A DNA stretch of 64,000 bases from an uncultured Gammaproteobacteria bacterium (GCA_964613815.1 CAZTKG010000006.1:10973-74972); one strand, 5' to 3'. Positions 11,277-63,095 are shown, counted from the first letter of the stretch. Notes: generated by a model not told the origin, from the letters alone. Program-made: numbers and translations.

Positions 11277-12065
11277 TCACCAGGCGGTGGGGAATGTGTG
11301 GACGGTGAAGTTGCCGAGCATGGCGTCCATGCTGCGGTGGATGTATTCGACGTCGCCGAGGTCGTTCTGGCCGCGGATGAGAACGGAGCCTTGGTAGACG
11401 GGGCCAATGATGTCGCCGTGGACGGGCATCTGGGTGGAGAATTCGTACACGCCGTTTGGCATGGCGGTGTAGGTGAGCTTTCCGTCGATGACCTGAGGCG
11501 GGTTGTAGCGTGAGCAGTGCAAGCCGCGCCATGCTGGGGACATGTCGTCGCCGTGGATGACGCGATGGCCTTCCGGGTAGCCTTGACAGTAGAGAGGTTC
11601 TCCGTTCTCGATGATCGGGCCGTAGGAGGGCATGGTGCCGGGGCGGCCGGTGTGGCGGTTGCCCCAGACGACGGTGTGGTTGTCGCGGCTGTCGATGCCG
11701 ACGAAGAGCGGGGCTTCGTCTACCATGATGACGGGGGCGGCGGCCTGGAAGGTGGTCAGCTCGACGCCGGCGAATTCGGCGAAGCCGCGGTTGTCGGAGA
11801 TGCGGTAGAACCAGCCGTAGTTGGCCTCCCCCCATCCGACAGTGGATCCGTCGTCGCCGTTTCGGGCGACGTAAACGGGGTCGCCGTCGACGAAGTCGAA
11901 GACTTCGATGTCGTGAAAGGTGACGCTGCCGTTGTCCCAGGTGAGGGTGCAGGTGTAGTGGAGTTCGTTTGTTGTGGCGACGAGGCTTGGGGCATCGAGG
12001 CCTTCGGGGATGATGCAGTCGATGGGGACGGGATTGTTGAGGAAGCCGAGGACGAGGGGTGTCAT
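11277..12065 (-). CDS. hypothetical protein
   Basis: 262-aa ORF. A promoter (TTGACA-17-TAACCT) lies at 12095-12125. A terminator hairpin + T-run lies at about 11235-11270. Confidence 0.5.
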   Translation of the reverse strand: MTPLVLGFLNNPVPIDCIIPEGLDAPSLVATTNELHYTCTLTWDNGSVTFHDIEVFDFVDGDPVYVARNGDDGSTVGWGEANYGWFYRISDNRGFAEFAGVELTTFQAAAPVIMVDEAPLFVGIDSRDNHTVVWGNRHTGRPGTMPSYGPIIENGEPLYCQGYPEGHRVIHGDDMSPAWRGLHCSRYNPPQVIDGKLTYTAMPNGVYEFSTQMPVHGDIIGPVYQGSVLIRGQNDLGDVEYIHRSMDAMLGNFTVHTFPTAW

Positions 12066-12104
12066 GGATTGCTCCTGGTTGGGTGAAATGTACGAAGGGG
12101 GAGG

Positions 12105-12419
12105 TTAGCGTGTTTTTGGGTGTTTGTCAAGGGTTTGAAGAATTCGTTGTTCTGCGAGTTTGTAGATTTTTGATCGATGTCCGATGATGTAAACGATGAC
12201 AGTTTGTTTTTGAATTTTGTATATAATTCGATAATTACCTACTCGGAGAGAGAGGTAGCCTTTTAGCGGAGGGACGAGATGTTTTCCGAAAAGATGAGGT
12301 TTTTTTCTGAGTTTTTCGCGTATTGATTTGTCGATGCGTTTTTTGATGGAGTTTGAAAATTTTGGAACATCTTTTTTGAGCACGCTTTCACGATATGCTA
12401 TTTGATAGGTGTTCCCCAC
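12105..12419 (-). CDS. relE: RelE/ParE-family toxin
   Basis: Core LSLRVGNYRIIYKIQKQTVIVYIIGHRSKIY. The proposed GTG start (VGNTYQIAYRE...) overlaps the antitoxin stop by about 20 nt. The track ORF begins further upstream at a non-credible start. Confidence 0.65.
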   Translation of the reverse strand: MGNTYQIAYRESVLKKDVPKFSNSIKKRIDKSIREKLRKKPHLFGKHLVPPLKGYLSLRVGNYRIIYKIQKQTVIVYIIGHRSKIYKLAEQRILQTLDKHPKTR

Positions 12420-12625
12420 ACTTCTTCGTGCGTTAATAGTTTTTCGTCTTTTCGTGCGTCGGCTAGCTCTGTCCAAATCATGTCTTCTTGCTCACTTATC
12501 GCTTTTTCTAATAAATCGGTGGCGATTTTTGTTTTTGAGACACCTTTATATTTAGCGAGTTTTGAGATCCAGAATTCCAGCTTTTCATTCAGAATTAGGT
12601 TTAGTCTTGGTTTTGTTGTAGGCAT
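12398..12625 (-). CDS. antitoxin of the RelE module (RelB/ParD-like)
   Basis: A 75-aa ORF starts at the ATG at 12625 (MPTTKPRLNLILNEKLEFWISKLAKYKGVSKTKIATDLLEKAI...). It lies immediately upstream of, and overlaps, the toxin gene. Confidence 0.55.
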   Translation of the reverse strand: MPTTKPRLNLILNEKLEFWISKLAKYKGVSKTKIATDLLEKAISEQEDMIWTELADARKDEKLLTHEEVWGTPIK

Positions 12626-12723
12626 ATATTTAGTGTGACACCAGTGTATCACTTTTGTTTGAGGATGTAAAATCAGGGACTGCTTGTGCAGTCCCTGTGA
12701 GAGGAGCTGATCATGGAGGATGA

Positions 12724-13518
12724 TCAGGAGATGAAGCCGCCGGCGGCGGTGGTGGAGAAGGCGGCGGCGGTCTGGCTGGCTCGGACGGCCGAGCGGGAGA
12801 AGACGTTGAAGGCGGCGCGGATCTCGGTGGGGGTGCCGGAGGGGGTTAGGATCCATTCGTCCTCGAGGCCCATGGAGCGGAAGACGGCCGTGAAGTCGGT
12901 GGAGCCGTCGTCAATGCCCATGGCGGCCACGATGTGGGTCTCGGCGGCCAGCATGTCGGAGACGACCTTCTTGATCTTCGCCGGGGTTTGGCGACGAGAG
13001 GTGCAGTCGGCGCCGTCGGTGATGATGAGGGTGACGGTGCGGCACGGGACGCCGTTGTCTTCGAACTCCTGCGCCTTGGCGAGGACGGTCGCGAGGATGA
13101 CGGCGGTCTCGTCGTAGAGCGGGGTCATGCCCATGGGGTCGTAGTTCGAGGTGTCCATGGTGGGGACGCCGGAGAGGGGCGAGTAGGGGTAGAGGATGGT
13201 GCCGTTCAGGTACCGGGTGTGGGCGATGATGCCGTCGCCCTGCTTGGAGTCCTTGAGGGCGTCGATGACGAGGTTGTGACCAGCGCGTACAGCGTCCGCG
13301 TTCTTGCCGAAGCGGATCGAGCCAGAGTCGTCGATGAGCATGGTGACCAGCACGACTTCGCTTGCGGTGACGTCGTCGACGGCGACGCCGAGGCCGGCGG
13401 CGATGTTGGCGCCGATGTCGGGGATGTTGAGGGCCATGACGGAGGCGGGGGTGAGCGTGCCGTCGTCGGTTGCGGCGTTGAAGAGGGAGGCGACGTTTGC
13501 TACGGTGGAGGAGGACAT
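12724..13518 (-). CDS. von Willebrand factor A (vWA) domain protein, TerY-like
   Basis: MIDAS motif DxSxS (MLIDDSGSI), plus TLIITDGADC and a further T/D. It is the last gene of the PP2C-kinase-amidase-vWA operon. Confidence 0.75.
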   Translation of the reverse strand: MSSSTVANVASLFNAATDDGTLTPASVMALNIPDIGANIAAGLGVAVDDVTASEVVLVTMLIDDSGSIRFGKNADAVRAGHNLVIDALKDSKQGDGIIAHTRYLNGTILYPYSPLSGVPTMDTSNYDPMGMTPLYDETAVILATVLAKAQEFEDNGVPCRTVTLIITDGADCTSRRQTPAKIKKVVSDMLAAETHIVAAMGIDDGSTDFTAVFRSMGLEDEWILTPSGTPTEIRAAFNVFSRSAVRASQTAAAFSTTAAGGFIS

Positions 13519-13700
13519 GGGGAGCTCCTTTGGAGCGATGATGTCCCTGCGGGACGGATAGAGCCCTTTTGGGGCGATAGGGATCCTGCGGATCGATAGA
13601 TGGCCACTCTTCGCGCTGCCGGGAAGCTTTGCGAAGAGTGGTTTTTGGGTTGCGTTTGGTACACTCCCGCCGGAGTTGTTTGATGATGATGTTGACTTGA

Positions 13701-14750
13701 TTAGGAGATGATCAGGTCAGGCCAGTCATTCATTGGGGTCATGGACTCGACGAGATGCATGCCGGCGGATTCGAAGCGCTTGAGGGCGGCTTCGGACTCG
13801 GGGGTGAAGTCGGCCACGAAGCCTCCGGCGCCGTCCGGGATCGCGACCGAAGACATGCAGTCGGTGAGGATGTAGACCTTGCTGACGAGCGACGGGTCGC
13901 GGGCGGCGATGTCGTCGAGGAGGTCGTCGATGGAGGACTTGACGCAGTGGCTTGCGGCCTGGCCGGCGATGATGACGGCGTCGGAGTCCACGAGCTTCTT
14001 GAGGAAGCCGGCGTTCCTCTGGGCGAGGGGGGCGCCGTCGTGACGGGTGAGGACTTCGGGGCGGAAGACGCTGTAGTTCTCGGTGAGCGGATGGCCGCCC
14101 TTCACTTCGCACCACGACTGGGAGCCGCGGGTGAAGCTGTGGAACAGGCGCGCTTCGTGGATGTTGCCGGCGAGGGCGTGACCGGTGGATCCGAGGAGGC
14201 AGTGCGGGGGCCAGAGGTAGAGGGCATACTTGCCCTCGCGTTCGAGCTCCTTGGTGTAGTGGATGACCTGCTTGAGGAGCCAGGCGTAGTTGCCGCTACA
14301 AAGCCACCAGGCCATCGCAGGGTTCGGACGGACGGCACCGGACTTGATCTCGGTGGTGGTGATGACGCGGAAGGGGGTGAGGGGAGCGCCAGCGCTATCG
14401 ATCCAGAATGACGCGAAGAAGATCTGGTACGCGAAGTGCGTGTCCATGGTGGTGGTGATGTCGGTGATGGCGCCGAGGTTCCGGTAGATGAATTCGGCGG
14501 TGCGGCGGGAGTCGTCGATGGCGCCAGAACCGGAGCGGCCGCCGACGTAGAGCGTGCCTTCGGGGAAGCAGAAGTCGCGCTGGACGTCGATGAGGAGGAG
14601 GTGGATGCGGGTTCGGTCGCTGGCGGCGGGGGTGATGGAGTTCGACTTGCGGTAGTCCGTCGCTGCGGCCATCAGGGTCATCTGGTCGGGGTTGTAGTCG
14701 AAGCGGGCGGAGGTGGGGGTGTAGAAGCTGGGCAGGGGGAGGGTGGTCAT
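13701..14750 (-). CDS. pncA: PncA-type nicotinamidase / isochorismatase-family cysteine hydrolase, 349 aa with insertions
   Basis: LLLIDVQRDFCFPEGTLYVGG, WPPHCLLGSTGHAL and IIAGQAASHCVKSSIDD match the PncA blocks IVDVQNDFCEGGSLAVTGG, WPPHCVSGTPGADF and VVGIATDHCVRQTAEDA. Catalytic D, K-region and C are present. Confidence 0.75.
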   Translation of the reverse strand: MTTLPLPSFYTPTSARFDYNPDQMTLMAAATDYRKSNSITPAASDRTRIHLLLIDVQRDFCFPEGTLYVGGRSGSGAIDDSRRTAEFIYRNLGAITDITTTMDTHFAYQIFFASFWIDSAGAPLTPFRVITTTEIKSGAVRPNPAMAWWLCSGNYAWLLKQVIHYTKELEREGKYALYLWPPHCLLGSTGHALAGNIHEARLFHSFTRGSQSWCEVKGGHPLTENYSVFRPEVLTRHDGAPLAQRNAGFLKKLVDSDAVIIAGQAASHCVKSSIDDLLDDIAARDPSLVSKVYILTDCMSSVAIPDGAGGFVADFTPESEAALKRFESAGMHLVESMTPMNDWPDLIIS

Positions 14751-14887
14751 GGGGATCTCCTTTGAGCGGTAGAGCCCTTTTGGGCGATAGGGATCCTTGC
14801 GGATCGATGGGGGCGCTTTGCGCCGACAGGGTTCAGCGAAGCTGAACGATAGGGTTGTTGTTGAACGTGCGTAGATTTTTCCAAGCT

Positions 14888-16753
14888 CTACGCGAGCTTG
14901 AGGAGGGAGATGTCTTTGTGATTTACCACGTAGATGCCTCCTGGCGCGGGGAAGAGGGCGCTTTCGGTGGTGACGAATGGTGCCGTTTTTGGGAACTCTT
15001 TGGCTTTTGTGATGGAAGAGCTATTGATGTCCATGCGGACGATGCCGTCGTCGGTTGCTGCGAGCAGCATGGGGCCTATTGCGCATTTTCCTCGAATGGT
15101 GCCGAGCCAGGTTCCGTCCTTTGAATGTGTCTCGGCGGATGCGATGACGGATCCATTCTGTTTGATGACGGTGCATCTATTGAGAATTTTTCCGGCATGC
15201 TTGTAGGTGACGAACAGCCAGCAGTGGGTGTGCGAGAAGCTGCAGGTTATGTCGATGAGCTGACCAGGGATTTTGGGCAGGTTGATCGAGTCATTGAGGC
15301 TTCTTGCGCCTTTTGTGAACATGAACGCGACGTTCATGGTTCCGGCTCGGTAGAGGCCGAAACCGAAGGTTTCTCCGGTCCAGATGAGGGTTTGGCCTTC
15401 GAGAATGTCGCCGATGTAGACTTCGCCGAAGTCATCTGCTTTCCGGAGCTGATGTCCTCTGGTGAAGAATGTGTGTTCACCGTTTGCGTCGAAGATGGGG
15501 AGATTTCGGAAGGATCCGATTGCTTTGCGCTCTGGAGGTCTTCCTGATTTGAGAGAGACGAGTATGCCGTTTCGGCCGAGGATTGTTTTGTTGCCAGAGA
15601 TGCGGTAGCGCATTTTTGGCTCGAACGATCCTGTGGTTACGCGGCGGCCGTCTTCTCGTTTGAGGGCATTGTTTTCGTGGTAGATCCAGCGGAGTTTTCC
15701 GTTTTGGACTGTCGCGAATACGATGTGACCTGAAGTGCGGAAGAATCGGTTGTTTGTGACGTTTCCGATAACGGTGACGGTTTCTTTGACGGCTGTTGCT
15801 GGAGTTCCAGCGCATGCGGGGCAGGTGAGTCTGGCGTGAACGAGATCGCAATGCGTGCATGTTTTCCAGTCCAGGTTTTTGATGAGGTGCTCAGGGAATG
15901 ATCCTCGGGCATCTTTTTTGAAGACCTGGTAGAAGTGCTGAAGAAGGTCGTCGGGGATGGAGTGCAGCGGGAGGGCTGGCTTGGGGTAGCGGACTTCGTC
16001 GTCGAAGAGGGTGATGCGACGAAGGGGGCGCTCCGGATGTTTGACGCGTTTTTTCTTGTCCCTTGGCTTGTAGACACCTCCGAATGGGCCGACACAGAGG
16101 AGGCAATACATGAGCATGGTGGTGAATGCGTACCAGTCTGAGTTCTCATTGTGCGGCTTGTGCAGCGTGAGATGAGACTGGTTCGGATCTGCGAGAAGCG
16201 GGTCCATGTAGCGTTCGGTGTACATGCGCGCGAACCATTTGCCGTACTGAAAGCTGTCAGCGTCGATGATGTAGGCCTCGGCGTCACGTATGAGGACGTT
16301 GAGGTCGTTGAAGTCGCCGATGACGACTCCGCGGGCGTGGATGGCTCCGACGGTTTTGTGCAGGTCAAGGAATATTTTGACGATGCGTGCCGGGTCCACG
16401 GTGAGGCGGAATTGTTTTTCGCTGAAGGCTCTGAGCGGGTCTGCACCTGGAATCAGGCGCATGGTGTAGCCAGCTATTTGATTGCCGCGTTTGCTTGTGG
16501 CGAGATCGATTGGGGTGATGACTCTTGCGGGGAGACCTTTTGGAAAGGCAGGAAGCTTTGCCTGATGTTCTTTGATTCGAGCTTTGGCGTTTGCTTGCTC
16601 TCCGGGGTCTCCGTGGAAGTCGGCATGGCTTGCGGTTTTGAAGATCTTGGCCGCTTTGCCTGAGCCGATGTCGTAGACGTCCGCCTCGCTCCCTTTGCCG
16701 AGTGTTCGGCTGGGATCGATACGAATGCGCCGACCGTTGATGTAGGTGTGCAT
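14888..16753 (-). CDS. atypical protein-kinase-like protein with a Cys4 zinc ribbon and a C-terminal beta-rich domain
   Basis: The N-terminus carries a Gly-rich loop LGKGSEADVYDIG, a VAIK-like AAKIFK, a catalytic-loop-like HARGVVIGDFNDLNVLI and a DFG-like IIDADSF. These are followed by CTHCDLVHARLTCPAC and about 280 aa of beta-strand-rich sequence. Confidence 0.7.
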   Translation of the reverse strand: MHTYINGRRIRIDPSRTLGKGSEADVYDIGSGKAAKIFKTASHADFHGDPGEQANAKARIKEHQAKLPAFPKGLPARVITPIDLATSKRGNQIAGYTMRLIPGADPLRAFSEKQFRLTVDPARIVKIFLDLHKTVGAIHARGVVIGDFNDLNVLIRDAEAYIIDADSFQYGKWFARMYTERYMDPLLADPNQSHLTLHKPHNENSDWYAFTTMLMYCLLCVGPFGGVYKPRDKKKRVKHPERPLRRITLFDDEVRYPKPALPLHSIPDDLLQHFYQVFKKDARGSFPEHLIKNLDWKTCTHCDLVHARLTCPACAGTPATAVKETVTVIGNVTNNRFFRTSGHIVFATVQNGKLRWIYHENNALKREDGRRVTTGSFEPKMRYRISGNKTILGRNGILVSLKSGRPPERKAIGSFRNLPIFDANGEHTFFTRGHQLRKADDFGEVYIGDILEGQTLIWTGETFGFGLYRAGTMNVAFMFTKGARSLNDSINLPKIPGQLIDITCSFSHTHCWLFVTYKHAGKILNRCTVIKQNGSVIASAETHSKDGTWLGTIRGKCAIGPMLLAATDDGIVRMDINSSSITKAKEFPKTAPFVTTESALFPAPGGIYVVNHKDISLLKLA

Positions 16754-52923: not shown

Positions 52924-54918
52924 ATGAATATTACGCAGCTTGCTAGACGTCTTCGAGTTACTCCTGAAGAGCTACGCGCAAAATTGCCGGAGCTCGGTTT
53001 TGATATTGGGCAGAAAGCGCTTAAGATTCCGGATCGGGATGCGGGGCGAATTATGTATGCTTGGCGTGAATATAAGAAGCGTCAGTATTTGGAGAAGAAG
53101 CGTGATGAGCAGCGAGCTCGTGCAGAGCGGAAGGAGCGGGTGAAGAGTGGTGATGCTGAGCAGGTCATGCTTCCTTCGACGATGAGTGTGCGGGAATTTG
53201 CTGAGCATATGAACTTGCCGATCGCGAAGGTGATGCAGGAGTTGATGCGACAGGGTATTCTTGCGTCTCTTAATGAGCGGATTGATTTTGATACAGCTGC
53301 TATTGTGGCTGAGGATTTGGGATTTTTGGCGCAGCCGCTTGAAGGGAGCGCGGATGGTTCTGATGAGGAGGTGCAGAGGCTTGAGGCTGTTATGTCAGCT
53401 GAAGATGAGGCTGATCTTGTTCAGCGACCTCCGGTTATTGTGGTGATGGGGCATGTTGATCATGGAAAGACGAAGCTTCTTGATGCTGTGCGGAAGACGA
53501 ATGTTGTTGATAGTGAGCGTGGAGGAATTACGCAGCATATTGGTGCTTATCAGGTTGAGCGGAATGATCATTTGATGACTTTTATTGATACACCGGGACA
53601 CGAGGCTTTTACGGTTATGAGAAGTCGTGGTGCGAAGGTTGCGGATATTGCGATTTTGGTTGTTGCTGCGGATGATGGAATTCAGCCGCAGACAAAGGAG
53701 GCGATTGATATTATTAAGGCTTCTAAGTTGCCGTTTGTTGTTGCGATTAACAAGATTGATGTTGCGGGTGCAAATGTTGAACGTGTGAAGGGGCAGCTTG
53801 CTGAGGTGAATTTTGTTCCGGAAGATTGGGGAGGGAAAACGATTTGTGTTCCGATGAGCGCGAAGACGGGAGAGAATGTTGATCAGCTTCTTGATATGCT
53901 CGTGCTTGTCGCTGATTTGGCGAAGGATGATATTCGTGCGAATCCTGATCGACTTGCGATTGGAACGATTATTGAGTCACACGTTGATAAGGGTGAAGGG
54001 GCTGTTGCAACGGTTTTGGTACAGACTGGGGAGTTGAAGGTTGGGGACGCTGTTGGTCTTCGTGGAGTTAATTATGGAAAGGTTCGCGCGATGCGGACTT
54101 GGGATGGGCAGACGGTGAAGACTGCTGCGCCTTCTACTCCTGTGAAAATTTTGGGATTAAAAGATGCGCCTTCTGTTGGAGATATTTTGGAAGTGCCGGA
54201 AAATCCGAAGTCTTTGGAAAAGGTGAAGTTTAAGCATAGTACGAAGTCTGGTGTGGCGGAGATTTCTGTGAAGAAGACGGTTTCTGTGGATGATGATGAG
54301 GATGAGAAGCCGGTTTTGAATGTGATCGTGAAGGCAGATGTGCTTGGGTCGCTTGAGGCGGTGATTGGCATGATTGAGAAGATTGATAATCCGTATGTTG
54401 ATGTGAAGGTTGTGGCGAAGGGGCTTGGGAATGTGACGGATGCGGATATGCTTCGGGCGGAGGCTGCTGAGGCTCGTGTGTATGCGTTTAATGTGCGTTT
54501 GACAGGAACTGCGGAGACGCTTGCTCGCGACAAAGATTTGTCGTTTGAGCGGTTTGAGATTATTTATCGATTGCATGAAGACATGGAGGAGCGTGTGAAG
54601 GCGCTTGTGCCGAAGGAGAAGGTTTATACGGAACTTGGAAGTTTGCGTGTACTTGCGGTGTTTGGGAAGCTTGAGAAGGGTGTTGTGATTGGAGGGCAGG
54701 TTCTTAAAGGGACGATTGAGCGCGGGGCTGTTGCTCGTGTGATTCGTGAGGAGAAGATTTTGGGGGAGGGGCTTATTGAGACGTTGCAGGCTGGGAAGGT
54801 TGATGTGAAGGATGTTGAGCAGGGGCAGGAATGTGGGATTGGGTTTACGACGAAGACGAAGGTTGAGGTTGGGGATACCTTGGAGATTTATAAGGAGGAG
54901 GAGATTGAACGGAAATAA
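52924..54918 (+). CDS. infB: translation initiation factor IF-2
   Basis: GTP-binding motifs GHVDHGKT, DTPGHEAF and NKID, plus IF-2 C-terminal beta-barrels. Confidence 0.92.
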   Translation: MNITQLARRLRVTPEELRAKLPELGFDIGQKALKIPDRDAGRIMYAWREYKKRQYLEKKRDEQRARAERKERVKSGDAEQVMLPSTMSVREFAEHMNLPIAKVMQELMRQGILASLNERIDFDTAAIVAEDLGFLAQPLEGSADGSDEEVQRLEAVMSAEDEADLVQRPPVIVVMGHVDHGKTKLLDAVRKTNVVDSERGGITQHIGAYQVERNDHLMTFIDTPGHEAFTVMRSRGAKVADIAILVVAADDGIQPQTKEAIDIIKASKLPFVVAINKIDVAGANVERVKGQLAEVNFVPEDWGGKTICVPMSAKTGENVDQLLDMLVLVADLAKDDIRANPDRLAIGTIIESHVDKGEGAVATVLVQTGELKVGDAVGLRGVNYGKVRAMRTWDGQTVKTAAPSTPVKILGLKDAPSVGDILEVPENPKSLEKVKFKHSTKSGVAEISVKKTVSVDDDEDEKPVLNVIVKADVLGSLEAVIGMIEKIDNPYVDVKVVAKGLGNVTDADMLRAEAAEARVYAFNVRLTGTAETLARDKDLSFERFEIIYRLHEDMEERVKALVPKEKVYTELGSLRVLAVFGKLEKGVVIGGQVLKGTIERGAVARVIREEKILGEGLIETLQAGKVDVKDVEQGQECGIGFTTKTKVEVGDTLEIYKEEEIERK

Positions 54919-55216
54919 GAAAAGGAGGTGAATTGAAGAGGGAGAGGCTTTTTTGGGCAATCGGACGCCTTTAACGCCTCTTTTTTGATTTTGGCTTCAG
55001 ATGGATAAAAGAGGGTGGACGGCGTTATTCCTCATGCCTAAAAACACCCCTCCTCCCTCCAATTCACGTTTTTATAGGGGAATGAAAAAACACCGGGGAT
55101 AGCTGGTGCTTTTGATGGTGCCGTGTGGCGTGGGCGCTGCTGGCCTCGCGGGATCCTTTCGGCGCGCTAGGGCTGGCGCGCCTCAGGATGGTGGAGCAAG
55201 GTGGGATTTTGTAATC

Positions 55217-55525
55217 TTATAAGTGTTTTTGGAGTTTTTCTTTTAAACCTTCTTTGCTCATTGATCCTGAGAATTGTTCCACCACCTTGCCGCTTTTGAA
55301 GACGAGGAAGGTTGGGATGGAGAGGATGTTGTATTGTCTTGCGAGATCTGGTTCTGCGTCTACGTTGATTTTGCCGATGGTGACGTGTTCCATTTCTGTG
55401 GCGAGTTCGTCGACGATGGGGGACATCATTTTACATGGGCCGCACCAGGGGGCCCAGAAGTCTACGAGAACAAGGGTTTCGGATTGAAGTACGGCGGCGT
55501 CGAAGTTGTCGGCGGTTAGGTCCAT
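55217..55525 (-). CDS. trxA: thioredoxin
   Basis: WAPWCGPCK active site. The start was taken at the ATG (MDLTADNF), because the track start is a TTG. Confidence 0.88.
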   Translation of the reverse strand: MDLTADNFDAAVLQSETLVLVDFWAPWCGPCKMMSPIVDELATEMEHVTIGKINVDAEPDLARQYNILSIPTFLVFKSGKVVEQFSGSMSKEGLKEKLQKHL

Positions 55526-55606
55526 AGAGATAGATTCAAAATTCAAAGTGGTGATAGTTTATCATATTTCGATTAAAGATTCTGTTTGTGATAAACTCAG
55601 GCCAAT

Positions 55607-56536
55607 ATGGATGATGCAACTCGTGAGGTTATCATTATTGGTTCTGGGCCTGCTGGGTATACGGCGGCTATTTATGCTGCTCGAGCGGATTTGAAGCCGC
55701 TTATGATTGCTGGAGATCAGCCTGGGGGACAGTTGATGTTGACGAGTGATGTAGAGAATTGGCCTGGAGAGGCGGATGGGGTGATGGGGCCGGATTTGAT
55801 GTTGAAATTGAAGAAGCAGTCGGTTCGGTTTGGGACGGAGTTTGTGCAGGATATGGTGACGGAGGTGGATTTTGATGCGCGTCCGTTTGTTATTAAGACG
55901 AAGGATAAAATATATCGTGCGGAGACGGCGATTATTTCAACGGGGGCGAGTGCGATGTGGCTTGGGATTCCGGGGGAGGAGCGATTGCAAGGGAAGGGAG
56001 TGAGTGCTTGTGCGACGTGTGATGGATTCTTTTTTCGTGATAAGGATGTGATTGTGGTTGGTGGGGGAGATAGTGCGATGGAGGAGGCGACGTTTATTAC
56101 GAAGTTTGCTCGGAAGGTGACGATTTTGGTGCGGCGGGATGCTTTGCGGGCGAGTAAGATTATGCAGAAGCGGGCGATGGATAATGTAAAGATTGAGATT
56201 ATGTGGAATACGAGTGCGGTGGAATTGCGTGGGGAGGAGAAGGTTGAGGAGGTTTTGGTGAAAAATAATCAGACGGGGGAGGAGACGGTTTTGAAAGCGG
56301 ATGGGTTTTTTGTGGCGATTGGGCATAAGCCGAATACCGGGATTTTTGCGGGGAAGATTGATTTGGATGAGAAGGGGTATGCGAAGCATGCGCCGGATAG
56401 TACGCGGACGAATGTGGAGGGAGTGTTTGTTGCGGGGGATGTGGGAGATAGTGTTTATAGGCAGGCGGTGACGGCGGCTGGGACGGGGTGTATGGCGGCT
56501 TTGGAGGCGGAGCGGTATTTGGCAAGTCGGGAGTAG
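55607..56536 (+). CDS. trxB: thioredoxin-disulfide reductase
   Basis: GSGPAGYTAAIYAAR (FAD), CATCDG redox centre and GGGDSAMEEA (NADPH). Confidence 0.9.
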   Translation: MDDATREVIIIGSGPAGYTAAIYAARADLKPLMIAGDQPGGQLMLTSDVENWPGEADGVMGPDLMLKLKKQSVRFGTEFVQDMVTEVDFDARPFVIKTKDKIYRAETAIISTGASAMWLGIPGEERLQGKGVSACATCDGFFFRDKDVIVVGGGDSAMEEATFITKFARKVTILVRRDALRASKIMQKRAMDNVKIEIMWNTSAVELRGEEKVEEVLVKNNQTGEETVLKADGFFVAIGHKPNTGIFAGKIDLDEKGYAKHAPDSTRTNVEGVFVAGDVGDSVYRQAVTAAGTGCMAALEAERYLASRE

Positions 56537-56626
56537 GTTTTGATGGAGGCTGTCGGGGTTCTCGGCGGTTTTTTGATTGAAAAAAAGAACCCCTTTAGGG
56601 GGTGAGGGTTTTGCAGAGATGTTGAG

Positions 56627-57241
56627 CTATGCTTCCGCGGCGGCGGAAGAGGTTGGGCTTGTCTGGAGGAGCATGGCGCGTTGGGCGATGTCGATTTCTT
56701 GAATGAGCCTTGCTTGGAGAATGTTGTTTCCGTGATCGGCGAAGCGGGAGCTGGTGCTTGATCCGTGGATGATTACGGATTGTTCATCGTTGGAGATGCG
56801 CGGGGGCTTGAAGTGCGGATGTGGGTTTCCGCAGTGTGAGCAGTAGACGTCTGCAATGGCCTCGTGGGGTGGCCTGTGCTCGATGGAGATGAGGCTGACG
56901 ATTTTGCTCGGTGGAGTGCTTGCGAGGTGGAGGCTTTGCACGATGCGTACTGCGGGTTGGGTGAAGCTCACTGCTTTTGCCCAGGCAGACATGTTGACGA
57001 GTTCGCCCCAGGCGTCGATGAGGAAGTCGATGATTCGAGTTCGGAGGTCTCCGTTTGGGTTGACCGTGCTCGTTGTCGATGCGGTGATGCCGGTTTTGTT
57101 GACGATGAGGGTGAGGTGATCGGTTTCGGTGAACGTTGCCAGGAAGGCGCCGAACAGATTTCGGAAACCGGCTTCGAAGAGGGGGCAGCTTGGGGTGCTG
57201 AGGATGTCGGTCGCGGTGAGGGAGAGTCGGAGTTCTTGCAC
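56627..57241 (-). CDS. member 1 of a four-gene tandem paralog family (hypothetical; C-terminus ...AAAEA)
   Basis: It has its own promoter (TTGACA-16-TATCCT at about 57270-57300) and its own terminator hairpin + T-run (56575-56605). The conserved 3' end is GCxGAAGCATAG. It contains CSHCGNPHP. Confidence 0.5.
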   Translation of the reverse strand: MQELRLSLTATDILSTPSCPLFEAGFRNLFGAFLATFTETDHLTLIVNKTGITASTTSTVNPNGDLRTRIIDFLIDAWGELVNMSAWAKAVSFTQPAVRIVQSLHLASTPPSKIVSLISIEHRPPHEAIADVYCSHCGNPHPHFKPPRISNDEQSVIIHGSSTSSRFADHGNNILQARLIQEIDIAQRAMLLQTSPTSSAAAEA

Positions 57242-57340
57242 GAGGTTTCCTCTTGGGTGAAAAGAACGTTTTTAGGATAGGTCGGTTGGCGTGGTTTTGT
57301 CAATAAGAAAAGAACAACCCTGATGGGTTGTTTGGTTTGG

Positions 57341-58012
57341 CTAGGCTTCGCCGGTTGGTTGGGGTTGCCATGTTCGAGCGGTCCCTGGGACAGGTGCGCC
57401 TTGTTGTTTTCGGGCGCGCCGCGTGTTTGCTTGGTGGGTGATTTCTGCCCGTATTCGAGTGATGATTTCTCGTTTGGTCTGGCGATTGAGCCAGTCTGCG
57501 AAGGGGTAGGGGTCTTGGCATCTCAGGAAGGCGATTCGTCTGGTTCCGTGCGGGGCGGCGAATGCCCTGGCGTGGTTTGCGAATTCGATGTGAGATTCTG
57601 CTGGAGGCTTGTCGATGCCTTGAACTATTCGCGGGATGTTTGGAAGGTCTTCTTCTGTGAGGTCGAAGGCTCGGACGGTTGCCTTGATTGTTTCCTCTGA
57701 GATTCCGCTTTCGATGTGGCGCGTGGCCTTGATGCAGATGATGCGGAGGAGTTTCAGGAGGTCTTTGAGCATCATCGTGTTATTGAAGCTTGGAAGCGCT
57801 CCGAGGATTGCGAATGTTCCGTTTGCCATGTCCATGACGGCCGTGATTTGGTCGCCGGGCTTCATGCGGTGGAGGATGCTGTTTTTGCATTCGGCTTCTG
57901 CTTCTCTGGTGATGTTGTCGCAGTGTGGTGCGGATCGCGCGATGAGCCGTTTGGAGCCGTCCTCTTCGGTAATGCAGATGAAGGTGAGGGAGATGAAGGC
58001 GGGAAGTAGCAT
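57341..58012 (-). CDS. member 2 of the tandem paralog family (C-terminus ...PTGEA)
   Basis: Promoter TTGACA-17-TACACT at 58040-58070. The start was taken at the ATG (MLLPAFISLTF), because the track TTG start lies inside the -35 box. A terminator lies at 57305-57335. Confidence 0.5.
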   Translation of the reverse strand: MLLPAFISLTFICITEEDGSKRLIARSAPHCDNITREAEAECKNSILHRMKPGDQITAVMDMANGTFAILGALPSFNNTMMLKDLLKLLRIICIKATRHIESGISEETIKATVRAFDLTEEDLPNIPRIVQGIDKPPAESHIEFANHARAFAAPHGTRRIAFLRCQDPYPFADWLNRQTKREIITRIRAEITHQANTRRARKQQGAPVPGTARTWQPQPTGEA

Positions 58013-58115
58013 TGGTGCTCGCGGTGAAAAGAACGCGTGGAGTGTATGGGGAGATGGGGGGTTTGTCAAGGTTAGGGAGATAAAAAAGAACAGCCGGGTT
58101 GGGCTGTGTGTTGGG

Positions 58116-58790
58116 TCATGCTTCGGCAGCTGGGCCGCCTTGCCAGTGAATCATGTGGATGTTGTCTGGCATGGGAGGGGGTGTGAACGGTTTTGGGGTC
58201 GGATTGGTTTGACGCCGCATGTGCATTCTGACTCGGGCGATGACGAGTTCTCGGATTCTCTCGTTGATCCATTCGTGGAATGGCGTTTCGCGTGAGTGGC
58301 CAGCGACGATTGCCGCGGTGCATTCTTTCCCTGGCTCGCAGACGTGATTGGGATTTGGGTGTCCGGTGATGTCGATGGGGACGCCTGCGGGCTGGACCCA
58401 GATGTGGTCTTCGATCGGATGGTGATTTTTTAAGAGTTCCATGATGCCATGGAGCATCTTAGGAGTCGCTACTCGTTTTGCTGTTGTTTGCGCGAGAGCC
58501 TCTGCGATCTTGATCGTTTTTGTCCCGATAGTTCTGACTGCGTTGATGAATTGCGGAGGCGGAGATCCTGTGAGGATTTCGACGGTTGTGTTGTCGTGGT
58601 TTGTGGTTGCTTGGATCGCGATTCTGACGTCGAGTACCTCTAGGGTTTCTGTTGGGAATTTTTTACTAGCGAACCGTTCCATCTCTTTGGCGCGTGGCTG
58701 AGTCCGTACGCGGACTTTTTTGACTCGCATTCCAGTTTTGGAGTGGATGCCTTCGGTGACACGGAAGGTGATGATGATGGGGTTTGGCAT
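58116..58790 (-). CDS. member 3 of the tandem paralog family (C-terminus ...GPAAEA)
   Basis: Promoter TTGACA-17-TATCCT at 58820-58852, terminator at 58082-58112, and motif VAGHSRETPFHEWINERIRE. Confidence 0.5.
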   Translation of the reverse strand: MPNPIIITFRVTEGIHSKTGMRVKKVRVRTQPRAKEMERFASKKFPTETLEVLDVRIAIQATTNHDNTTVEILTGSPPPQFINAVRTIGTKTIKIAEALAQTTAKRVATPKMLHGIMELLKNHHPIEDHIWVQPAGVPIDITGHPNPNHVCEPGKECTAAIVAGHSRETPFHEWINERIRELVIARVRMHMRRQTNPTPKPFTPPPMPDNIHMIHWQGGPAAEA

Positions 58791-58886
58791 GATGGCCTCG
58801 ATTGTGAAAAGGGCGTTGGGAGGATAGCGGATTTTTGGGGGTTTGTCAACTATGTTTTGTTGTATGAAAAAATCCTCGATAGAGGA

Positions 58887-59462
58887 TTATGCTTCGGCGG
58901 GGGTTGGGGAGGGGTGGAGTTCGGCTTGGAGTTTTTCCCTGATTCGGCGTTGGAGTTCTGCGTTCATGTATTTGTGGAAGGGGTGGTCGCAAGAGAGGCC
59001 GATGAGGATGACGGGGTTGGTGCCGGTTCTTGTGGCATTTTGGATGATGCCTTGAGCGAGCGACGCGTCGGGGATGATGTGGATGTGTTCGTGGAGTTGT
59101 TCTGGTGGGATGTGAGTAGCGTTTTCGCGGATGACTGAGGTTGGTATGAGGGGAATGGCTCTGTTGATCATGTTCTGTACGACGCTCATTGCAGATGCTG
59201 CCTTGCTGCGCATGTACGTTTCGAGTTGTGAGCTGATGCGAGCATCGGAGATTTCGATCGTTGTTTCGTCTGCTGTTGCGGTGATGGTGATGAGGCTGTT
59301 TTTGGTGAGTGAGGCCGCATTTCTGTTGTTTGAGAGAACTTTTTGGATCGCTGCCGTGAATGCTCGCTCTGTGGTGGGGTCTCTTGGTACTGTGCGGAGT
59401 CTCAGCGTGAAGCTGGATGGGGTTTTGACGGCGTGAAAGATGAACTTTATCGCGTTTGGCAT
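58887..59462 (-). CDS. member 4 of the tandem paralog family (C-terminus ...PTPAEA)
   Basis: Promoter TTGAAC-17-TATAGT at 59480-59515, terminator at 58858-58884, and motif LSCDHPFHKYMNAELQRRIRE homologous to that of member 3. The N-terminus MPNAI... resembles MPNPI... of member 3. Confidence 0.5.
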   Translation of the reverse strand: MPNAIKFIFHAVKTPSSFTLRLRTVPRDPTTERAFTAAIQKVLSNNRNAASLTKNSLITITATADETTIEISDARISSQLETYMRSKAASAMSVVQNMINRAIPLIPTSVIRENATHIPPEQLHEHIHIIPDASLAQGIIQNATRTGTNPVILIGLSCDHPFHKYMNAELQRRIREKLQAELHPSPTPAEA

Positions 59463-59575
59463 GATAGTTCCTGATTTGAAAAGGACATGGCGACTATATG
59501 TTGAACTGGGATTTTGTTCAAGCTCGCCAGGATTGGGAAGTTTTGTTACTCTTTTGAGGACATTAATGATTATTT

Positions 59576-59911
59576 ATGATGGATGTGAGTCCGCAGAAAT
59601 TAAAAGAGGAGGTGACCGGTGGGAAATCGGTTACGATTGTTGATCTTCAGGAGGCGCATGCGTATGCGCATTCTCATATTCCTGGGGCGGTGAATGTGCC
59701 GATGGAGGGGTTTGAGAAGGGGTATGCGGATGTGGTGAAGGATAAGGATTCGATTGTGGTTTTGTATGGGGAGTATGATGAGTTAGGGAAGGGATCGAAG
59801 GCTGGGGAGGTTTTGCAGGCGGCTGGGTATGAGAAGGTTGGGCATGTTGTTGGGGGGCTTCGGGGGTGGCAGGAGGCTGGGTATCCGACTGAGGGAGGGA
59901 AGGAGAGTTAA
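59576..59911 (+). CDS. single-domain rhodanese-homology protein (no active-site Cys visible)
   Basis: Rhodanese-fold layout (TIVDLQEAHAYAHSHIPGAVNVP...LYGEYDELG...GGLRGWQEAGYP). The catalytic-loop Cys is replaced. Confidence 0.6.
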   Translation: MMDVSPQKLKEEVTGGKSVTIVDLQEAHAYAHSHIPGAVNVPMEGFEKGYADVVKDKDSIVVLYGEYDELGKGSKAGEVLQAAGYEKVGHVVGGLRGWQEAGYPTEGGKES

Positions 59912-59924
59912 GGGGTGAAAACGG

Positions 59925-60074
59925 GCCGAAGTTGCACTCTGGGTATGGTGCGACGTCGGGTCGGGACACCTTTAGCGTCCATACCGTTAATTTTGGCTAC
60001 AGGATGGATGGGTGAGGAGCGGCGGTGTCATATCCTCCGCCTCCTTACGCACCATACCCAGAGTGCAACTTCGG
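59925..60074. repeat. 30-bp perfect inverted repeat (gggccgaagttgcactctgggtatggtgcg / cgcaccatacccagagtgcaacttcggccc) enclosing a 90-nt GC-rich loop, 25 nt upstream of leuS
   Basis: Seen directly. Both arms are exact reverse complements. Confidence 0.75.
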
Positions 60075-60098
60075 CCCGTTTTGATTATTTATATTTGT

Positions 60099-63095
60099 AT
60101 GCAATTTGATCATAAGAAGATTGATAAGAAATGGCAGGAGCGGTATGAGGCTGAGGAGCCTTTTAAGGCTTTGGATGATTCTGATAAGGAGAAGGTTTAT
60201 CATCTTGTTGAGTTTCCTTATCCGAGTGGAGCGGGGCTTCATGTTGGGCATGTTCGGAGTTATACAGCGCTTGATATTGTGAGTCGGAAAGCTCGGATGT
60301 TGGGAAAGGAAGTTTTGTATCCGATTGGATGGGATGCGTTTGGGTTGCCGACGGAGAATTATGCGATTAAGACGGGGCGGTTGCCTGCGGAGGTGACGAA
60401 GGAAAATATTGATACGTTTCGGCGTCAGCTCAAGGCGCTTGGGATTGGGTTTGACTGGAGTCGGGAAGTGGATACGACGGATCCGAATTATTATAAGTGG
60501 ACGCAGTGGATGTTTTTGCAGTTTTTTGATGCGGGGCTTGCGTATAAGGCGACAGTGCCGATTAATTGGTGTTTGAGTTGTAAGATTGGGCTTGCGAATG
60601 AGGAGGTGGTTGCTGGGGCTTGTGAGCGTTGTGGGGGTGAAGTTGAGAAGCGAGATAAAGAGCAGTGGATGATTCGGATTACGGATTATGCGGAGCGGCT
60701 TTTGGAAGGGTTGGATGAGGTGGATTATTTGCCGCAGATTGCGAAGCAGCAGTGGGATTGGATTGGGAAGAGTGAGGGATGTGATATTGATTTTGTGGTT
60801 TCTGGTGAGGGAGTGGAAGAGATTGTTGTGGCGACGGGGAATGAGGCGAAGGTTGCGCGGGTGAAGAAATTGCTTGGGCGTGTTTGTGCTGGAGTGAAGG
60901 TTTTCTCGATTAGCGATGCTGGACTTGAAAAGGTTGAGGTTGAGGAGGATGGGTCGCTTGTGGAGAATGCGCGGAAGAAGGCAGTGGCTTATATTGGAAA
61001 AACTGATAAGCCTGTGCTTGGGATGGATACGGCGTTTTATATTGATGGGGAGGAGATTGATCCTTTGGCGGTGAAGCGGAATGCTTTGGGAGGTGCGGAT
61101 GAGAAGGATTTTTCGCAGGAGGAGATTGCGGAGAAGATGCATGCGTTTTATCGGAAGATTGCGGAAAAGCATGGTGGGGATGTTGAGGCGTATTTTGAGG
61201 ATGCGAGTGTGTTGATTTTTGCTGATGGGAGTGAGCGGGTTGAGGTGAATCAGCGGGCGGTTATTTTGACATCGGAAGCGGTTGGGGAGCGGGAGTTGTA
61301 TTTTCCTGTGCGGAATATGTATAAGGTTGCGGCGACGGGGAAGTATGTTGCTGATTCTGATGAGGAGGATGAGTTTGTTGAGCTTGTAAGTTTGATGGGT
61401 GCCTTGCGGAATGTTTGTGCGCCGAGTTTGTGTGTGTTTACGACGCGGCCGGATACGCTTTTTGGGGCGACGTATATGGTTTTGGCGCCGGAGCATCCTA
61501 TGGTTGACGCGTTGACGATTGATGATCAGAAAAAGGTAGTTGATGATTATGTGAAGGCGGCTGGGAGGATTTCTGATCGGGATCGGGGGGATGCTGGTCG
61601 GGAGAAGACGGGGGTGTTTACGGGGGCGTATGTGATTAATCCTGTGAATGATGAAAAGATTCCTGTTTGGGTGGCTGATTATGTCTTGATGGGATATGGG
61701 ACTGGAGCGATTATGGCGGTGCCGGGGCATGATGAGCGGGATTGGGCGTTTGCGAAGAAATTTGAAATTGATATTCGGGAGGTGGTTTCTGGAGGTGATG
61801 TTGATGAGGAGGCGTATGTTGGTGATGGGGAGATTGTGAATAGTGATTTTTTGGATGGGAAGCCTGTAGCGGAAGCGAAGGAATTGATGATGGAGCGACT
61901 TGTGGAGATGGGGGTTGGGCGTGCGAAGGTGAATTATAAACTTCGGGATTGGGTGTTTAGTCGGCAGCGGTATTGGGGGGAGCCTATTCCTTTGGTGCAT
62001 TGTGAGGATTGTGGATGGGTGCCGGTTTCTGATGGGGAGTTGCCTGTTGTGCTTCCTGTGGTTGAGAAATATGAGCCTACGGATAGTGGGGAGAGTCCGC
62101 TTGCGGCGATTGAGGAGTGGGTGCAGACATCGTGTCCTGCGTGTGGAGAGGGGGCTCGGCGGGAGACGGATACGATGCCGAATTGGGCTGGGTCTAGTTG
62201 GTATTTTTTGCGGTATGTTGATGCGCGGAATGATGAGGAGTTTGCATCAAAGGAAAAGCTTGCTGCATGGATGCCGGTGAATTTGTATAACGGGGGGATG
62301 GAGCATACGACGCTTCATTTGTTGTATTCTCGGTTTTGGAATATGTTCTTGTTTGACCGAGGATTGGTTCCGACGAGCGAACCTTATGCGAGGCGACATA
62401 GTCATGGGATGGTGCTTGCGCATGATGGATTGAAGATGAGTAAGTCGAAGGGGAACACGGTGAATCCGGATGAGATTTTGGAAGGACTTGGAGCGGATGC
62501 GCTTCGGATGTACGAGATGTTTATGGGGCCGTTTGAAGATGCGATTCCTTGGAACGAGCAGGGGCTTGTGGGGGTTCGGCGATTTTTGGATAAGGTTTGG
62601 CGGTTGCAGGAGAAGGTATCGGATAGCGAAGATGAGAGTGTGACTCGCGCGGTTCATAAGATGGTGAAGAAGGTTGGAGAGGATGTTGATGGGATGCGGT
62701 TTAATACGGCGGTGAGTGCGTTTATGATTTGTGTGAATGTGATTCAGGAGGCGGGGAGTGTGACGAAGGATTCGCTTGTGATGATGTTGACGGCTTTGAA
62801 TCCGTTTGCGCCGCATGTGACGAATGAGATGTATGAGATTTTGGGAGGAGAGGGACTTTTGGAGAAGTCTGCGTGGCCTGTTTATGATGAAGGGTTGGTG
62901 GTTGATGATGAGGTGACGGTTGCGGTGCAGGTGAATGGGAAGTTGCGTGGGAAGATTGTGGTGCGTGTGGATGCTGCGGAGGTTGATGTGGTTGAGACGG
63001 CGAAGGGGGAGGAGAATGTGGTGAAGTTTTTGGAGGGGGTTGATATTAAGAAGACGGTTTATGTGAAGGGGAGGTTGGTGAATTTTGTGGTTTGA
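60099..63095 (+). CDS. leuS: leucyl-tRNA synthetase carrying an about 210-aa Ham1/ITPase-like insertion
   Basis: HVGHVRSY (HIGH), KMSKS, Zn-knuckle cysteines and the CP1 editing core (FTTRPDTLFGAT...GTGAIMAVPGHDERD). Between the Zn module and CP1 lies EIVVATGNEAKVARVKKLL...VENARKKAVAYIGKTDKPVLGMD..., matching the RdgB/Ham1 signature VLATGNxGKxxE...ENAxxKA...PxLgDDSG. Confidence 0.9.
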   Translation: MQFDHKKIDKKWQERYEAEEPFKALDDSDKEKVYHLVEFPYPSGAGLHVGHVRSYTALDIVSRKARMLGKEVLYPIGWDAFGLPTENYAIKTGRLPAEVTKENIDTFRRQLKALGIGFDWSREVDTTDPNYYKWTQWMFLQFFDAGLAYKATVPINWCLSCKIGLANEEVVAGACERCGGEVEKRDKEQWMIRITDYAERLLEGLDEVDYLPQIAKQQWDWIGKSEGCDIDFVVSGEGVEEIVVATGNEAKVARVKKLLGRVCAGVKVFSISDAGLEKVEVEEDGSLVENARKKAVAYIGKTDKPVLGMDTAFYIDGEEIDPLAVKRNALGGADEKDFSQEEIAEKMHAFYRKIAEKHGGDVEAYFEDASVLIFADGSERVEVNQRAVILTSEAVGERELYFPVRNMYKVAATGKYVADSDEEDEFVELVSLMGALRNVCAPSLCVFTTRPDTLFGATYMVLAPEHPMVDALTIDDQKKVVDDYVKAAGRISDRDRGDAGREKTGVFTGAYVINPVNDEKIPVWVADYVLMGYGTGAIMAVPGHDERDWAFAKKFEIDIREVVSGGDVDEEAYVGDGEIVNSDFLDGKPVAEAKELMMERLVEMGVGRAKVNYKLRDWVFSRQRYWGEPIPLVHCEDCGWVPVSDGELPVVLPVVEKYEPTDSGESPLAAIEEWVQTSCPACGEGARRETDTMPNWAGSSWYFLRYVDARNDEEFASKEKLAAWMPVNLYNGGMEHTTLHLLYSRFWNMFLFDRGLVPTSEPYARRHSHGMVLAHDGLKMSKSKGNTVNPDEILEGLGADALRMYEMFMGPFEDAIPWNEQGLVGVRRFLDKVWRLQEKVSDSEDESVTRAVHKMVKKVGEDVDGMRFNTAVSAFMICVNVIQEAGSVTKDSLVMMLTALNPFAPHVTNEMYEILGGEGLLEKSAWPVYDEGLVVDDEVTVAVQVNGKLRGKIVVRVDAAEVDVVETAKGEENVVKFLEGVDIKKTVYVKGRLVNFVV

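Follow-up and report, generated by a model that had tools for sequence, protein, structure and literature searches.

What are the four small genes that stand head to tail between two housekeeping genes in a bacterial genome, and how did they come to be there? The locus lies in a stretch of 64,000 nucleotides (GCA_964613815.1 CAZTKG010000006.1:10973-74972, deposited under an uncultured Gammaproteobacteria bacterium; hereafter the window, with positions counted from its first letter), between trxB (plus strand, ending at 56536) and a rhodanese gene (plus strand, starting at 59576). All four genes, here named G1 to G4, are on the minus strand, separated by intergenic spacers of 96-103 nt. We hold with high confidence that they are real and make up a taxonomically restricted family: three to four tandem paralogues of old standing, each expressed from its own strong promoter. 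On balance, the overall explanation that we favour is an orphan array of paralogues encoding soluble, probably non-enzymatic binding proteins that would have a C-terminal docking module in common. The coding sequences, with protein lengths in amino acids (aa), are:

G1, 56627-57241, minus strand: 204 aa, GTG start, end ...SSAAAEA, contains CSHC; codon score (explained below) +0.35
G2, 57341-58012, minus strand: 223 aa (the JGI call is also 223 aa), ATG start, end ...PQPTGEA
G3, 58116-58790, minus strand: 224 aa, start MPNPI, end ...GGPAAEA
G4, 58887-59462, minus strand: 191 aa, start MPNAI, end ...PTPAEA

An earlier note on this DNA, made from the sequence alone, had called four minus-strand genes of 191-224 aa and had allowed that they might be artefacts of a plus-strand gene. 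The length of an open reading frame (ORF) alone proves nothing in the window, because both strands are poor in stop codons and long spurious ORFs are frequent; for example, one of 651 aa on the minus strand lies antisense to leuS. Indeed, when the local sequence of each unit was shuffled 5000 times and the longest stop-free run was scored, this run averaged ~100-115 codons on both strands. Runs at least as long as those observed turned up in 9-51 of the 5000 shuffles per unit (p = 0.002-0.01), which amounts to a joint probability of ~1e-10 for G1-G4. The four genes also display three-base periodicity, with T at 26-28% in codon position 2 and at 5-10% in position 3, where C reaches 43-59%; C and A together occupy 74-84% of third positions, compared with 81% in the genuine minus-strand thioredoxin gene. 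Codon-usage models trained separately on the confident plus- and minus-strand genes of the window score G1-G4 in their annotated frames at +0.21 to +0.35 bits/codon (bona fide minus-strand genes: 0.31 to 0.61), whereas the other frames of the region on both strands score -0.16 to -1.23, five plus-strand ORFs in the array region -0.24 to -0.90, and known antisense artefacts in the window -0.19 to -0.33. The same four proteins are called in the JGI annotation of identical contigs. On these grounds G1-G4 are real genes, as the note had it, and the overlapping plus-strand ORFs are the artefacts.

Are the four genes related to each other? Identities in the multiple alignment range from 15 to 27% among all four and from 20 to 27% among G2-G4. 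Pairwise alignment, which the note had recommended, gives Smith-Waterman scores that stand well above those of shuffled sequences for G2-G3 (z = 7.7), G3-G4 (7.6) and G2-G4 (3.8), and BLASTP joins G2 with G3 (E = 7e-4) and G3 with G4 (E = 3e-4). When one protein at a time was left out of the hidden Markov model and sought among 315 window ORFs, G3 (E = 5.5e-5) and G2 (E = 1.8e-3) each came out as the best-scoring non-member; G4 and G1 were not recovered. G1 reaches z = 2.4 against G4, 1.6 against G3 and 0.3 against G2, and hhalign places it on the G2-G4 profile at E = 0.08, with the colinear segment QSVIIHGSSTSSRFADHGNNILQARLIQEI against TAAIVAGHSRETPFHEWINERIRELVIARV. By sequence comparison we regard G2, G3 and G4 as firm but old paralogues and G1, only marginally similar to them, as a probable, highly diverged fourth member, on the strength of its helix motif, its AEA end, its size and its position. 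The common descent proposed for all four genes thus stands for three of them. The recent duplication that had been suggested is not supported: identity is only 20-27%, and what recurs at the DNA level is limited to short motifs, namely the leaders, the T-runs of the terminators, the final codons and the strand DNTTVEI/DETTIEI, which is visible even as a DNA repeat (family D12). All the contigs that bear the array, which come from three JGI samples and one ENA assembly, show 100% identity throughout it, and two contigs differ by one base elsewhere in the window.

All four proteins end in (A/G)-E-A, as no genuine ORF elsewhere in the window does. Near-identity of the 3' ends at the DNA level had been described, and three of the four genes do match GCNGAAGCAT(AG/GA/AA), but G2 ends in GGCGAAGCCTAG; the final codons are GCG-GAA-GCA-TAG (G1), GGC-GAA-GCC-TAG (G2), GCC-GAA-GCA-TGA (G3) and GCC-GAA-GCA-TAA (G4). 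Because synonymous codons and all three stop codons occur, this likeness reflects conservation at the protein level plus codon bias, and not conserved DNA. G3 and G4 have in common, just as described, the N-terminus MPN(P/A)I and a C-terminal block (PFHEWINERIRE and HPFHKYMNAELQRRIRE, respectively). Across the family, conservation peaks at beta1, in the beta2 region, at beta4 and, most strongly, in a C-terminal helix of the pattern PF-x-x-(W/Y)-h-N...R-I-R. A C-terminal tag resembling the organism's own transfer-messenger RNA (tmRNA) tag was considered and dropped, as the window holds no tmRNA gene. The blocks that contain the helix are:

58209-58283, minus strand: G3 residues 170-194, PFHEWINERIRELVIARVRMHMRRQ, the most conserved block of the family and a predicted amphipathic Arg-rich helix
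57431-57505, minus strand: conserved block, G2 residues 170-194, PFADWLNRQTKREIITRIRAEITHQ
58917-58982, minus strand: conserved block, G4 residues 161-182, PFHKYMNAELQRRIREKLQAEL
56672-56746, minus strand: weak counterpart of the block, G1 residues 166-190, RFADHGNNILQARLIQEIDIAQRAM

How are the genes expressed? A promoter consensus scan of 54900-60100 returned exactly four sites on the minus strand, one ahead of each of G1-G4, and four hairpin-plus-T-run terminators, one just past each stop codon, so that the array of single genes, each promoted and terminated, is borne out. The signals are:

57274-57303, minus strand: G1 promoter, TTGACA, 18 nt, TATCCT
58041-58069, minus strand: G2 promoter, TTGACA, 17 nt, TACACT
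58821-58849, minus strand: G3 promoter, TTGACA, 17 nt, TATCCT
59493-59521, minus strand: G4 promoter, TTGAAC, 17 nt, TATAGT
57257-57264, minus strand: G1 leader, CTTTTCAC, 9 nt past the -10 box, then Shine-Dalgarno site AGAGGA
58024-58031, minus strand: G2 leader, CTTTTCAC
58804-58811, minus strand: G3 leader, CTTTTCAC, then Shine-Dalgarno site CGAGG
59476-59483, minus strand: G4 leader, CTTTTCAA, then Shine-Dalgarno site AGGAA
56589-56603, minus strand: G1 intrinsic terminator, hairpin and T7, between the convergent trxB and G1
57313-57332, minus strand: G2 intrinsic terminator, 8-bp stem, T-run adjoining the G1 -35 box
58090-58107, minus strand: G3 intrinsic terminator, hairpin and T-run
58871-58888, minus strand: G4 intrinsic terminator, stem overlapping the TAA stop codon

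Two details of the note's description need amendment. Each gene does have one sigma-70-type promoter, with TTGACA at G1-G3, but that of G4 carries TTGAAC, and the TTGACAAA grammar is found genome-wide. Similarly, the cttttcac element said to be shared by the 5' untranslated regions is present at all four genes as CTTTTCA(C/A), a motif that occurs seven times on the minus strand of the window (four of these 9 nt past the -10 boxes of the array) and never on the plus strand, but a pyrimidine leader is general in this genome on both strands. Indeed, promoters and leaders of either strand follow a general grammar of TTGACAAA, ~13 nt, (T/C)GCTAnnnT, YTCTTT(T) and a GGAGG-like Shine-Dalgarno site. 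The promoter part, TTGACA(AA)-~13 nt-(T/C)GCTAnnnT, recurs in the window at 12 sites on the minus strand and 5 on the plus strand. The pyrimidine element YTCTTT(T), located ~9 nt past the -10 box and followed by the GGAGG-like site, precedes many unrelated genes on both strands (e.g. at the promoters 18748+, 19462+ and 20460+ and at the gene starts 43208+, 59576+, 11110-, 17578- and ~7250-); it may mark the transcription start region or be a pyrimidine-rich translation enhancer. Since the same signals stand at unrelated genes on both strands, the array uses the standard strong expression signals of the organism. It is distinctive in comprising four consecutive complete monocistronic units, whereas the neighbouring housekeeping genes are packed in operons, and from these signals we infer that each of G1-G4 is its own unit, transcribed independently in vivo. 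A conserved leader hairpin hiding the Shine-Dalgarno site was also considered and dropped, because the folds were inconsistent across the four leaders.

The G4 promoter differs from the other three in a further respect: a perfect inverted repeat, TTGAAC-N9-GTTCAA (59501-59521), spans its -35 box and spacer. This repeat, which sits in the 113-nt divergent region common to G4 and the rhodanese gene, may be an operator.

Does the family exist elsewhere? No known domain had been recognised before, and Pfam, NCBIfam, PHROGs and PADLOC indeed return nothing significant for any of the four proteins; profile matches to GrpE, FliE and Birna_VP2 (E = 0.014-0.18) were set aside as sub-threshold noise. 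A word-indexed search of 5.8 billion protein clusters, run with G3 and with a four-sequence profile, found the query proteins only, and when 1.84 billion representatives were searched exhaustively with a HMMER profile, the four proteins came back plus two repetitive ones, which were rejected as chance matches. A sequence profile search of the PDB gave nothing, and Foldseek, run against the PDB with the models of both G3 and G4 and also against BFVD, returned no match with E below 1e-2; its recurrent weak matches to MHC-like or Mago-like platforms were dismissed at a template modelling (TM) score of ~0.2. Comparison by tblastn with phage and plasmid records yielded no match at E <= 1, one pattern scan and two protein scans of IMG/VR yielded nothing, and Rfam has no RNA family in the array region. 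The G1-G4 family is thus an orphan: sequence, profile and fold searches of these public collections reveal no homologue.

The genomic setting tells where the array arrived. By the sequences of LeuRS, Trx, TrxB and rhodanese, we place the organism among the Patescibacteria, or Candidate Phyla Radiation (CPR). Its relatives are arranged as follows at the corresponding site (identities are to the proteins of the window; gdh, glutamate dehydrogenase gene):

L086: TrxB 78%, rhodanese 68% identity; trx-trxB-gdh-rhodanese
L084: rhodanese 78% identity; rhodanese immediately preceded by the 3' end and terminator of gdh
L005: TrxB 77% identity; trx-trxB-gdh-X-leuS
L010 (Ca. Uhrbacteria metagenome-assembled genome): TrxB 64% identity; trx-trxB-gdh-X-leuS
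L085: TrxB 67%, rhodanese 68% identity; small lipoprotein gene in the slot
L006: TrxB 62% identity; ~5.8 kb of other genes in the slot

No match to G1-G4 was found in the relatives' loci by tblastn at E < 1. Since the slot between trxB and rhodanese/leuS holds gdh in the nearest relatives, and differs in content among the loci listed, the array has taken the place of gdh in this lineage specifically. We also looked in the window for what might be left of gdh, and for an origin of the array from the antisense strand of gdh, and rejected both because no similarity was found.

This genome is strongly asymmetric between its strands. The plus strand of the 64 kb consists of 34.6% G, 15.8% C, 30.4% T and 19.3% A, with a GC skew of +0.37 and an AT skew of -0.22 that are uniform throughout, and about half of the genes lie on each strand. 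Third codon positions are 88-92% G or T in the plus-strand genes infB, trxB and leuS; given the opposite third-position bias of minus-strand genes (about 80% C or A), the bias tracks the DNA strand, whichever way a gene is transcribed. As the nearest relatives have a GC skew of only ~0.13, the extreme bias arose, or intensified, after the split from them. A comparable G/C disparity, without AT skew, has been reported for Microgenomates Ch65 (PMC7143001). The array genes have a GC content of 0.53-0.58, compared with ~0.49 for their neighbours, and their codon and strand bias equals that of resident minus-strand genes, so that they are either old in the lineage or fully ameliorated.

What, then, might the proteins do? 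The invariant columns of the alignment are M, P, I, T, I, I, A, F, N and the terminal E and A, and none of the four-protein alignment's invariant residues is of catalytic type. The isoelectric points (pI) are 6.1 (G1), 9.1 (G2), 9.8 (G3) and 9.5 (G4), and the amino-acid make-up is skewed to C/A-rich codons (T, P, A, I, H). None of the proteins has a transmembrane segment or a signal peptide, and Kyte-Doolittle means over 19 residues do not exceed 1.25, which makes the surface-associated role once suggested for them unlikely. AlphaFold2 models of G3 and G4 were built from one four-sequence alignment with five runs each. They reached medium confidence, with a predicted local distance difference test (pLDDT) of 69.4 and a predicted TM score (pTM) of 0.59 for G3, and 66.4 and 0.58 for G4, and they have the same topology, but structure prediction, another step that had been proposed, led to no significant fold match. 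The predicted chain begins with a beta-hairpin, a helix and a second beta-hairpin, continues with a ~28-residue helix, shorter helices and a low-confidence His/Pro/Cys-rich loop, and closes with a short strand, a ~22-residue C-terminal helix and a Pro-rich tail whose last residues are of low confidence. We take the family to be soluble alpha/beta proteins of about 190-225 aa, the fold being that of the models. A CxxC motif, YCSHCGNPHPHF, is found in G1 only (residues ~134-147; 56800-56860, minus strand), within the low-confidence loop; it stands near the trx/trxB/rhodanese redox neighbourhood, and the cysteines are not conserved in G2-G4.

We tentatively suggest that G1-G4 are non-enzymatic binding proteins sharing a C-terminal docking module, a proposal made because there is no invariant catalytic residue, because the proteins are soluble and basic, and because a conserved Arg-rich helix is followed by a Pro-rich tail whose terminal tripeptide is conserved at the protein level. 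The diverged protein bodies would recognise different ligands, while the common C-terminal module would dock on one partner, which could be a protease, a chaperone, an export component or a nucleic acid; the family members might then be variants with equivalent functions, comparable to the members of neutralising or immunity protein arrays. In proteins such as SSB and FtsZ, a flexible linker joins the folded domain to a conserved tip at the C-terminus. By analogy, G1-G4 may have a structured body, a Pro-rich tail (the low-confidence end) and a short conserved C-terminal peptide, although the tip (A/G)-E-A matches no known docking peptide and the comparison is one of analogy only.

As to the status of the family, a large share of CPR genes is hypothetical, and G1-G4 resemble other ORFan families of the CPR/Patescibacteria in being small proteins without a homologue outside a narrow lineage; unlike these, they stand together as a compact array of four genes whose expression signals are unusually clean, and their replacement of gdh can be dated against sister lineages. 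They have the marks of an orphan family: real coding sequence, no detectable homologue outside the lineage, and absence from the syntenic position in the nearest sampled relatives.

Several points weigh against this overall explanation. The membership of G1 is not statistically secured (z 0.3-2.4; hhalign E = 0.08). Wrong-strand gene calls could leave relatives from similarly skewed genomes out of protein databases, and claims of absence from such databases are weakened because public callers often choose the wrong strand in this genome. The contigs, all identical across the array, offer no polymorphism whose nonsynonymous to synonymous ratio (pN/pS) could reveal selection. The pLDDT values scatter over the five runs from 47 to 69 (G3) and from 41 to 66 (G4), and the agreement of the two models is not independent, both being derived from the same four-sequence alignment. 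Conservation is spread over core secondary-structure elements, so that "variable body, constant tail" is only partly apt as a description. Finally, neither homology nor a neighbouring gene points to the proposed function.

The nearest functional analogy is the homogeneous polyimmunity locus. Under such an explanation, which we consider unlikely if by no means far-fetched, distantly related cytoplasmic paralogues would each neutralise a different incoming toxin, as a pre-emptive defence of a cell living attached to others. The array fits the definition of these loci (Zhang et al. 2012, PMC3482391) in that small, soluble, non-enzymatic alpha/beta paralogues, related only distantly (significantly for G2-G4, probably for G1), follow each other in one orientation with no toxin gene adjoining, at a site that differs among related genomes. 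However, G1-G4 lie outside the known Imm/SUKH families, with no Imm or SUKH match in a Pfam scan at E <= 1, no significant match to SuFu or any other Pfam family, and negative results from NCBIfam and PADLOC. They are not polycistronic, each spacer of 96-103 nt holding a terminator and then a promoter, and no recombinase is among the annotated genes within ~10 kb. Nor was variation seen from strain to strain, the array-bearing contigs being 100% identical, and the array is absent from sister lineages. The conserved C-terminal tripeptide and the Arg-rich helix are not typical of immunity proteins, and extended polyimmunity loci have not been reported in the CPR lineage to which the host belongs (PMC3482391). 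Strings of non-identical immunity paralogues are also known among the immunity genes of type VII secretion systems, i.e. esaG and tsaI in Firmicutes, whose copies are closely related and undergo homologous recombination driven by their conserved flanks (PMC9484751). Like G1-G4, these are diverged paralogues that stand head to tail, their gene ends conserved and their interiors variable; unlike them, the G1-G4 copies are without DNA similarity beyond motifs, and neither a type VII secretion system nor a toxin is in evidence.

Rather improbable, in our estimate, is a role as abundant, small, basic nucleic-acid-binding, nucleoid-associated or regulatory proteins, whose Arg-rich C-terminal helix would bind DNA or RNA. 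It would account for the pI of 9.1-9.8 in three of the four proteins, for the amphipathic Arg-rich helix being the most conserved element and for promoters of consensus strength; the order of beta-hairpin, helix and beta-hairpin at the N-terminus of the G3 and G4 models is presumably compatible with several DNA-binding folds. Yet no DNA-binding family in Pfam or NCBIfam is matched, Foldseek gives no fold match, G1 is acidic to neutral, and C/A-rich codons account for part of the basic pI.

It is improbable as well that the block is the cargo of a lost mobile element or phage, i.e. moron-like units that were gained horizontally, replaced gdh and then drifted to the composition of the host. Phage morons are said, after work by Hendrix and colleagues of about 2000, to be autonomous promoter-gene-terminator units, and each of G1-G4 is likewise bracketed by its own promoter and intrinsic terminator; moreover, the block is missing from all relatives at the syntenic site, where it replaces gdh, and its GC content exceeds that of its neighbours. 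Unlike morons, G1-G4 stand outside any prophage or phage genome, their units are paralogous and their promoters are written in the host grammar. PHROGs, tblastn and the IMG/VR scans show no phage or plasmid similarity, there is no integrase, transfer RNA gene or repeat boundary, the flanking genes are housekeeping genes (trx, trxB, rhodanese, leuS), and codon and strand bias are those of resident minus-strand genes. G1-G4 are also unlike integron gene cassettes, which are promoterless, separated by attC sites and placed beside intI: each of them has a promoter, the intergenic inverted repeats are only the terminator hairpins, and no integrase is annotated within +/-10 kb, attC models not having been run.

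We give equally little credence to a more elaborate scenario, in which the family would have an unseen fold and its C-terminal module (the PF-x-x-W-h-N Arg-rich helix, the Pro-rich tail and A/G-E-A-COOH) would be a targeting signal for CPR-specific export or proteolysis. The array would then hold diversified contact-dependent effectors, or adaptors of regulated turnover, of an episymbiont, and strong head-on transcription under extreme strand-asymmetric mutation pressure would have sped up their divergence.

A birth of the family de novo from non-coding DNA of the lineage, helped by the scarcity of stop codons in skewed DNA and followed by duplication, is very improbable. The lack of a homologue in the collections searched, the stop-free runs of ~100-115 codons that shuffled sequence already yields and the tilt of the amino-acid make-up to C/A-rich codons would agree with it, but the proteins reach 190-225 aa, with an evident three-base period in their genes and a hydrophobic pattern, a compact alpha/beta fold emerges from AlphaFold with hardly any alignment to go on, and paralogues that have diverged to 20-27% identity imply a long history. 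The weakest alternative, that G1-G4 are spurious ORFs which arise from base composition or merely mirror genes on the plus strand, is effectively refuted: long spurious minus-strand ORFs are frequent in the window and some public annotations call plus-strand ORFs at the array, but codon scores are negative for every plus-strand ORF and frame and positive only for G1-G4, a promoter, a Shine-Dalgarno site and a terminator are precisely positioned around each ORF, the combined length probability is minute, and the C-terminus is conserved at the protein level.

The disagreement among annotations deserves description in its own right. Two public annotations of identical sequence put short plus-strand ORFs in the place of G4, or of G1, G2 and G4, with G4 mis-called in some as two plus-strand ORFs; the ORFs that replace G1, G2 and G4 in the ENA and some JGI annotations are without Pfam match. 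For identical DNA, the ENA and some JGI calls (loci L003, L112 and L113) conflict both at 56600-59500 and at 11300-16700, where other minus-strand genes that look genuine by their translations are mis-called in the same way (VWA-like, 12724-13518; isochorismatase-like, 13701-14750; kinase, 14888-16753). Gene callers appear to be misled by the strand bias.

Three further features of the window were noted. A gene block at 11277-14750 (minus strand) has a GC content of 0.63-0.67, compared with ~0.49 in the rest of the window, and may be a horizontally acquired island. An intergenic element of ~160 nt between the stop codons of infB and trx (54919-55095, plus strand) folds into a long imperfect hairpin (RNA minimum free energy -63.6 kcal/mol, z = -4.4); a second copy, 91% identical, adjoins ndk ~9 kb away, past the end of the window (L003 585-770, minus strand). 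The element has no match in Rfam and could be a repeat similar to miniature inverted-repeat transposable elements or a structured RNA. LeuRS (60099-63095, plus strand), finally, has 998-1027 aa, compared with 767-802 aa in relatives, and its insert includes a Ham1p-like segment (ITPase, PF01725; a weak match).

Lineage-restricted families abound in such poorly known bacteria, and hypothetical proteins arrayed in a CPR genome are in themselves no surprise. The strand asymmetry of the host genome, however, is one of the strongest on record, and standard callers put several genes of the array, and other minus-strand genes, on the wrong strand, so that proteins of such genomes are under-represented in databases. 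The conserved C-terminal tripeptide offers a concrete handle that could be used as bait for a partner. If expressed, G1-G4 would be a compact and clearly delimited lineage-specific family whose arrival can be dated, gdh having been replaced after the split from relatives with ~75% identity in core proteins, and the locus may serve as a test case for the origin and divergence of orphan genes under extreme mutational bias and head-on transcription.

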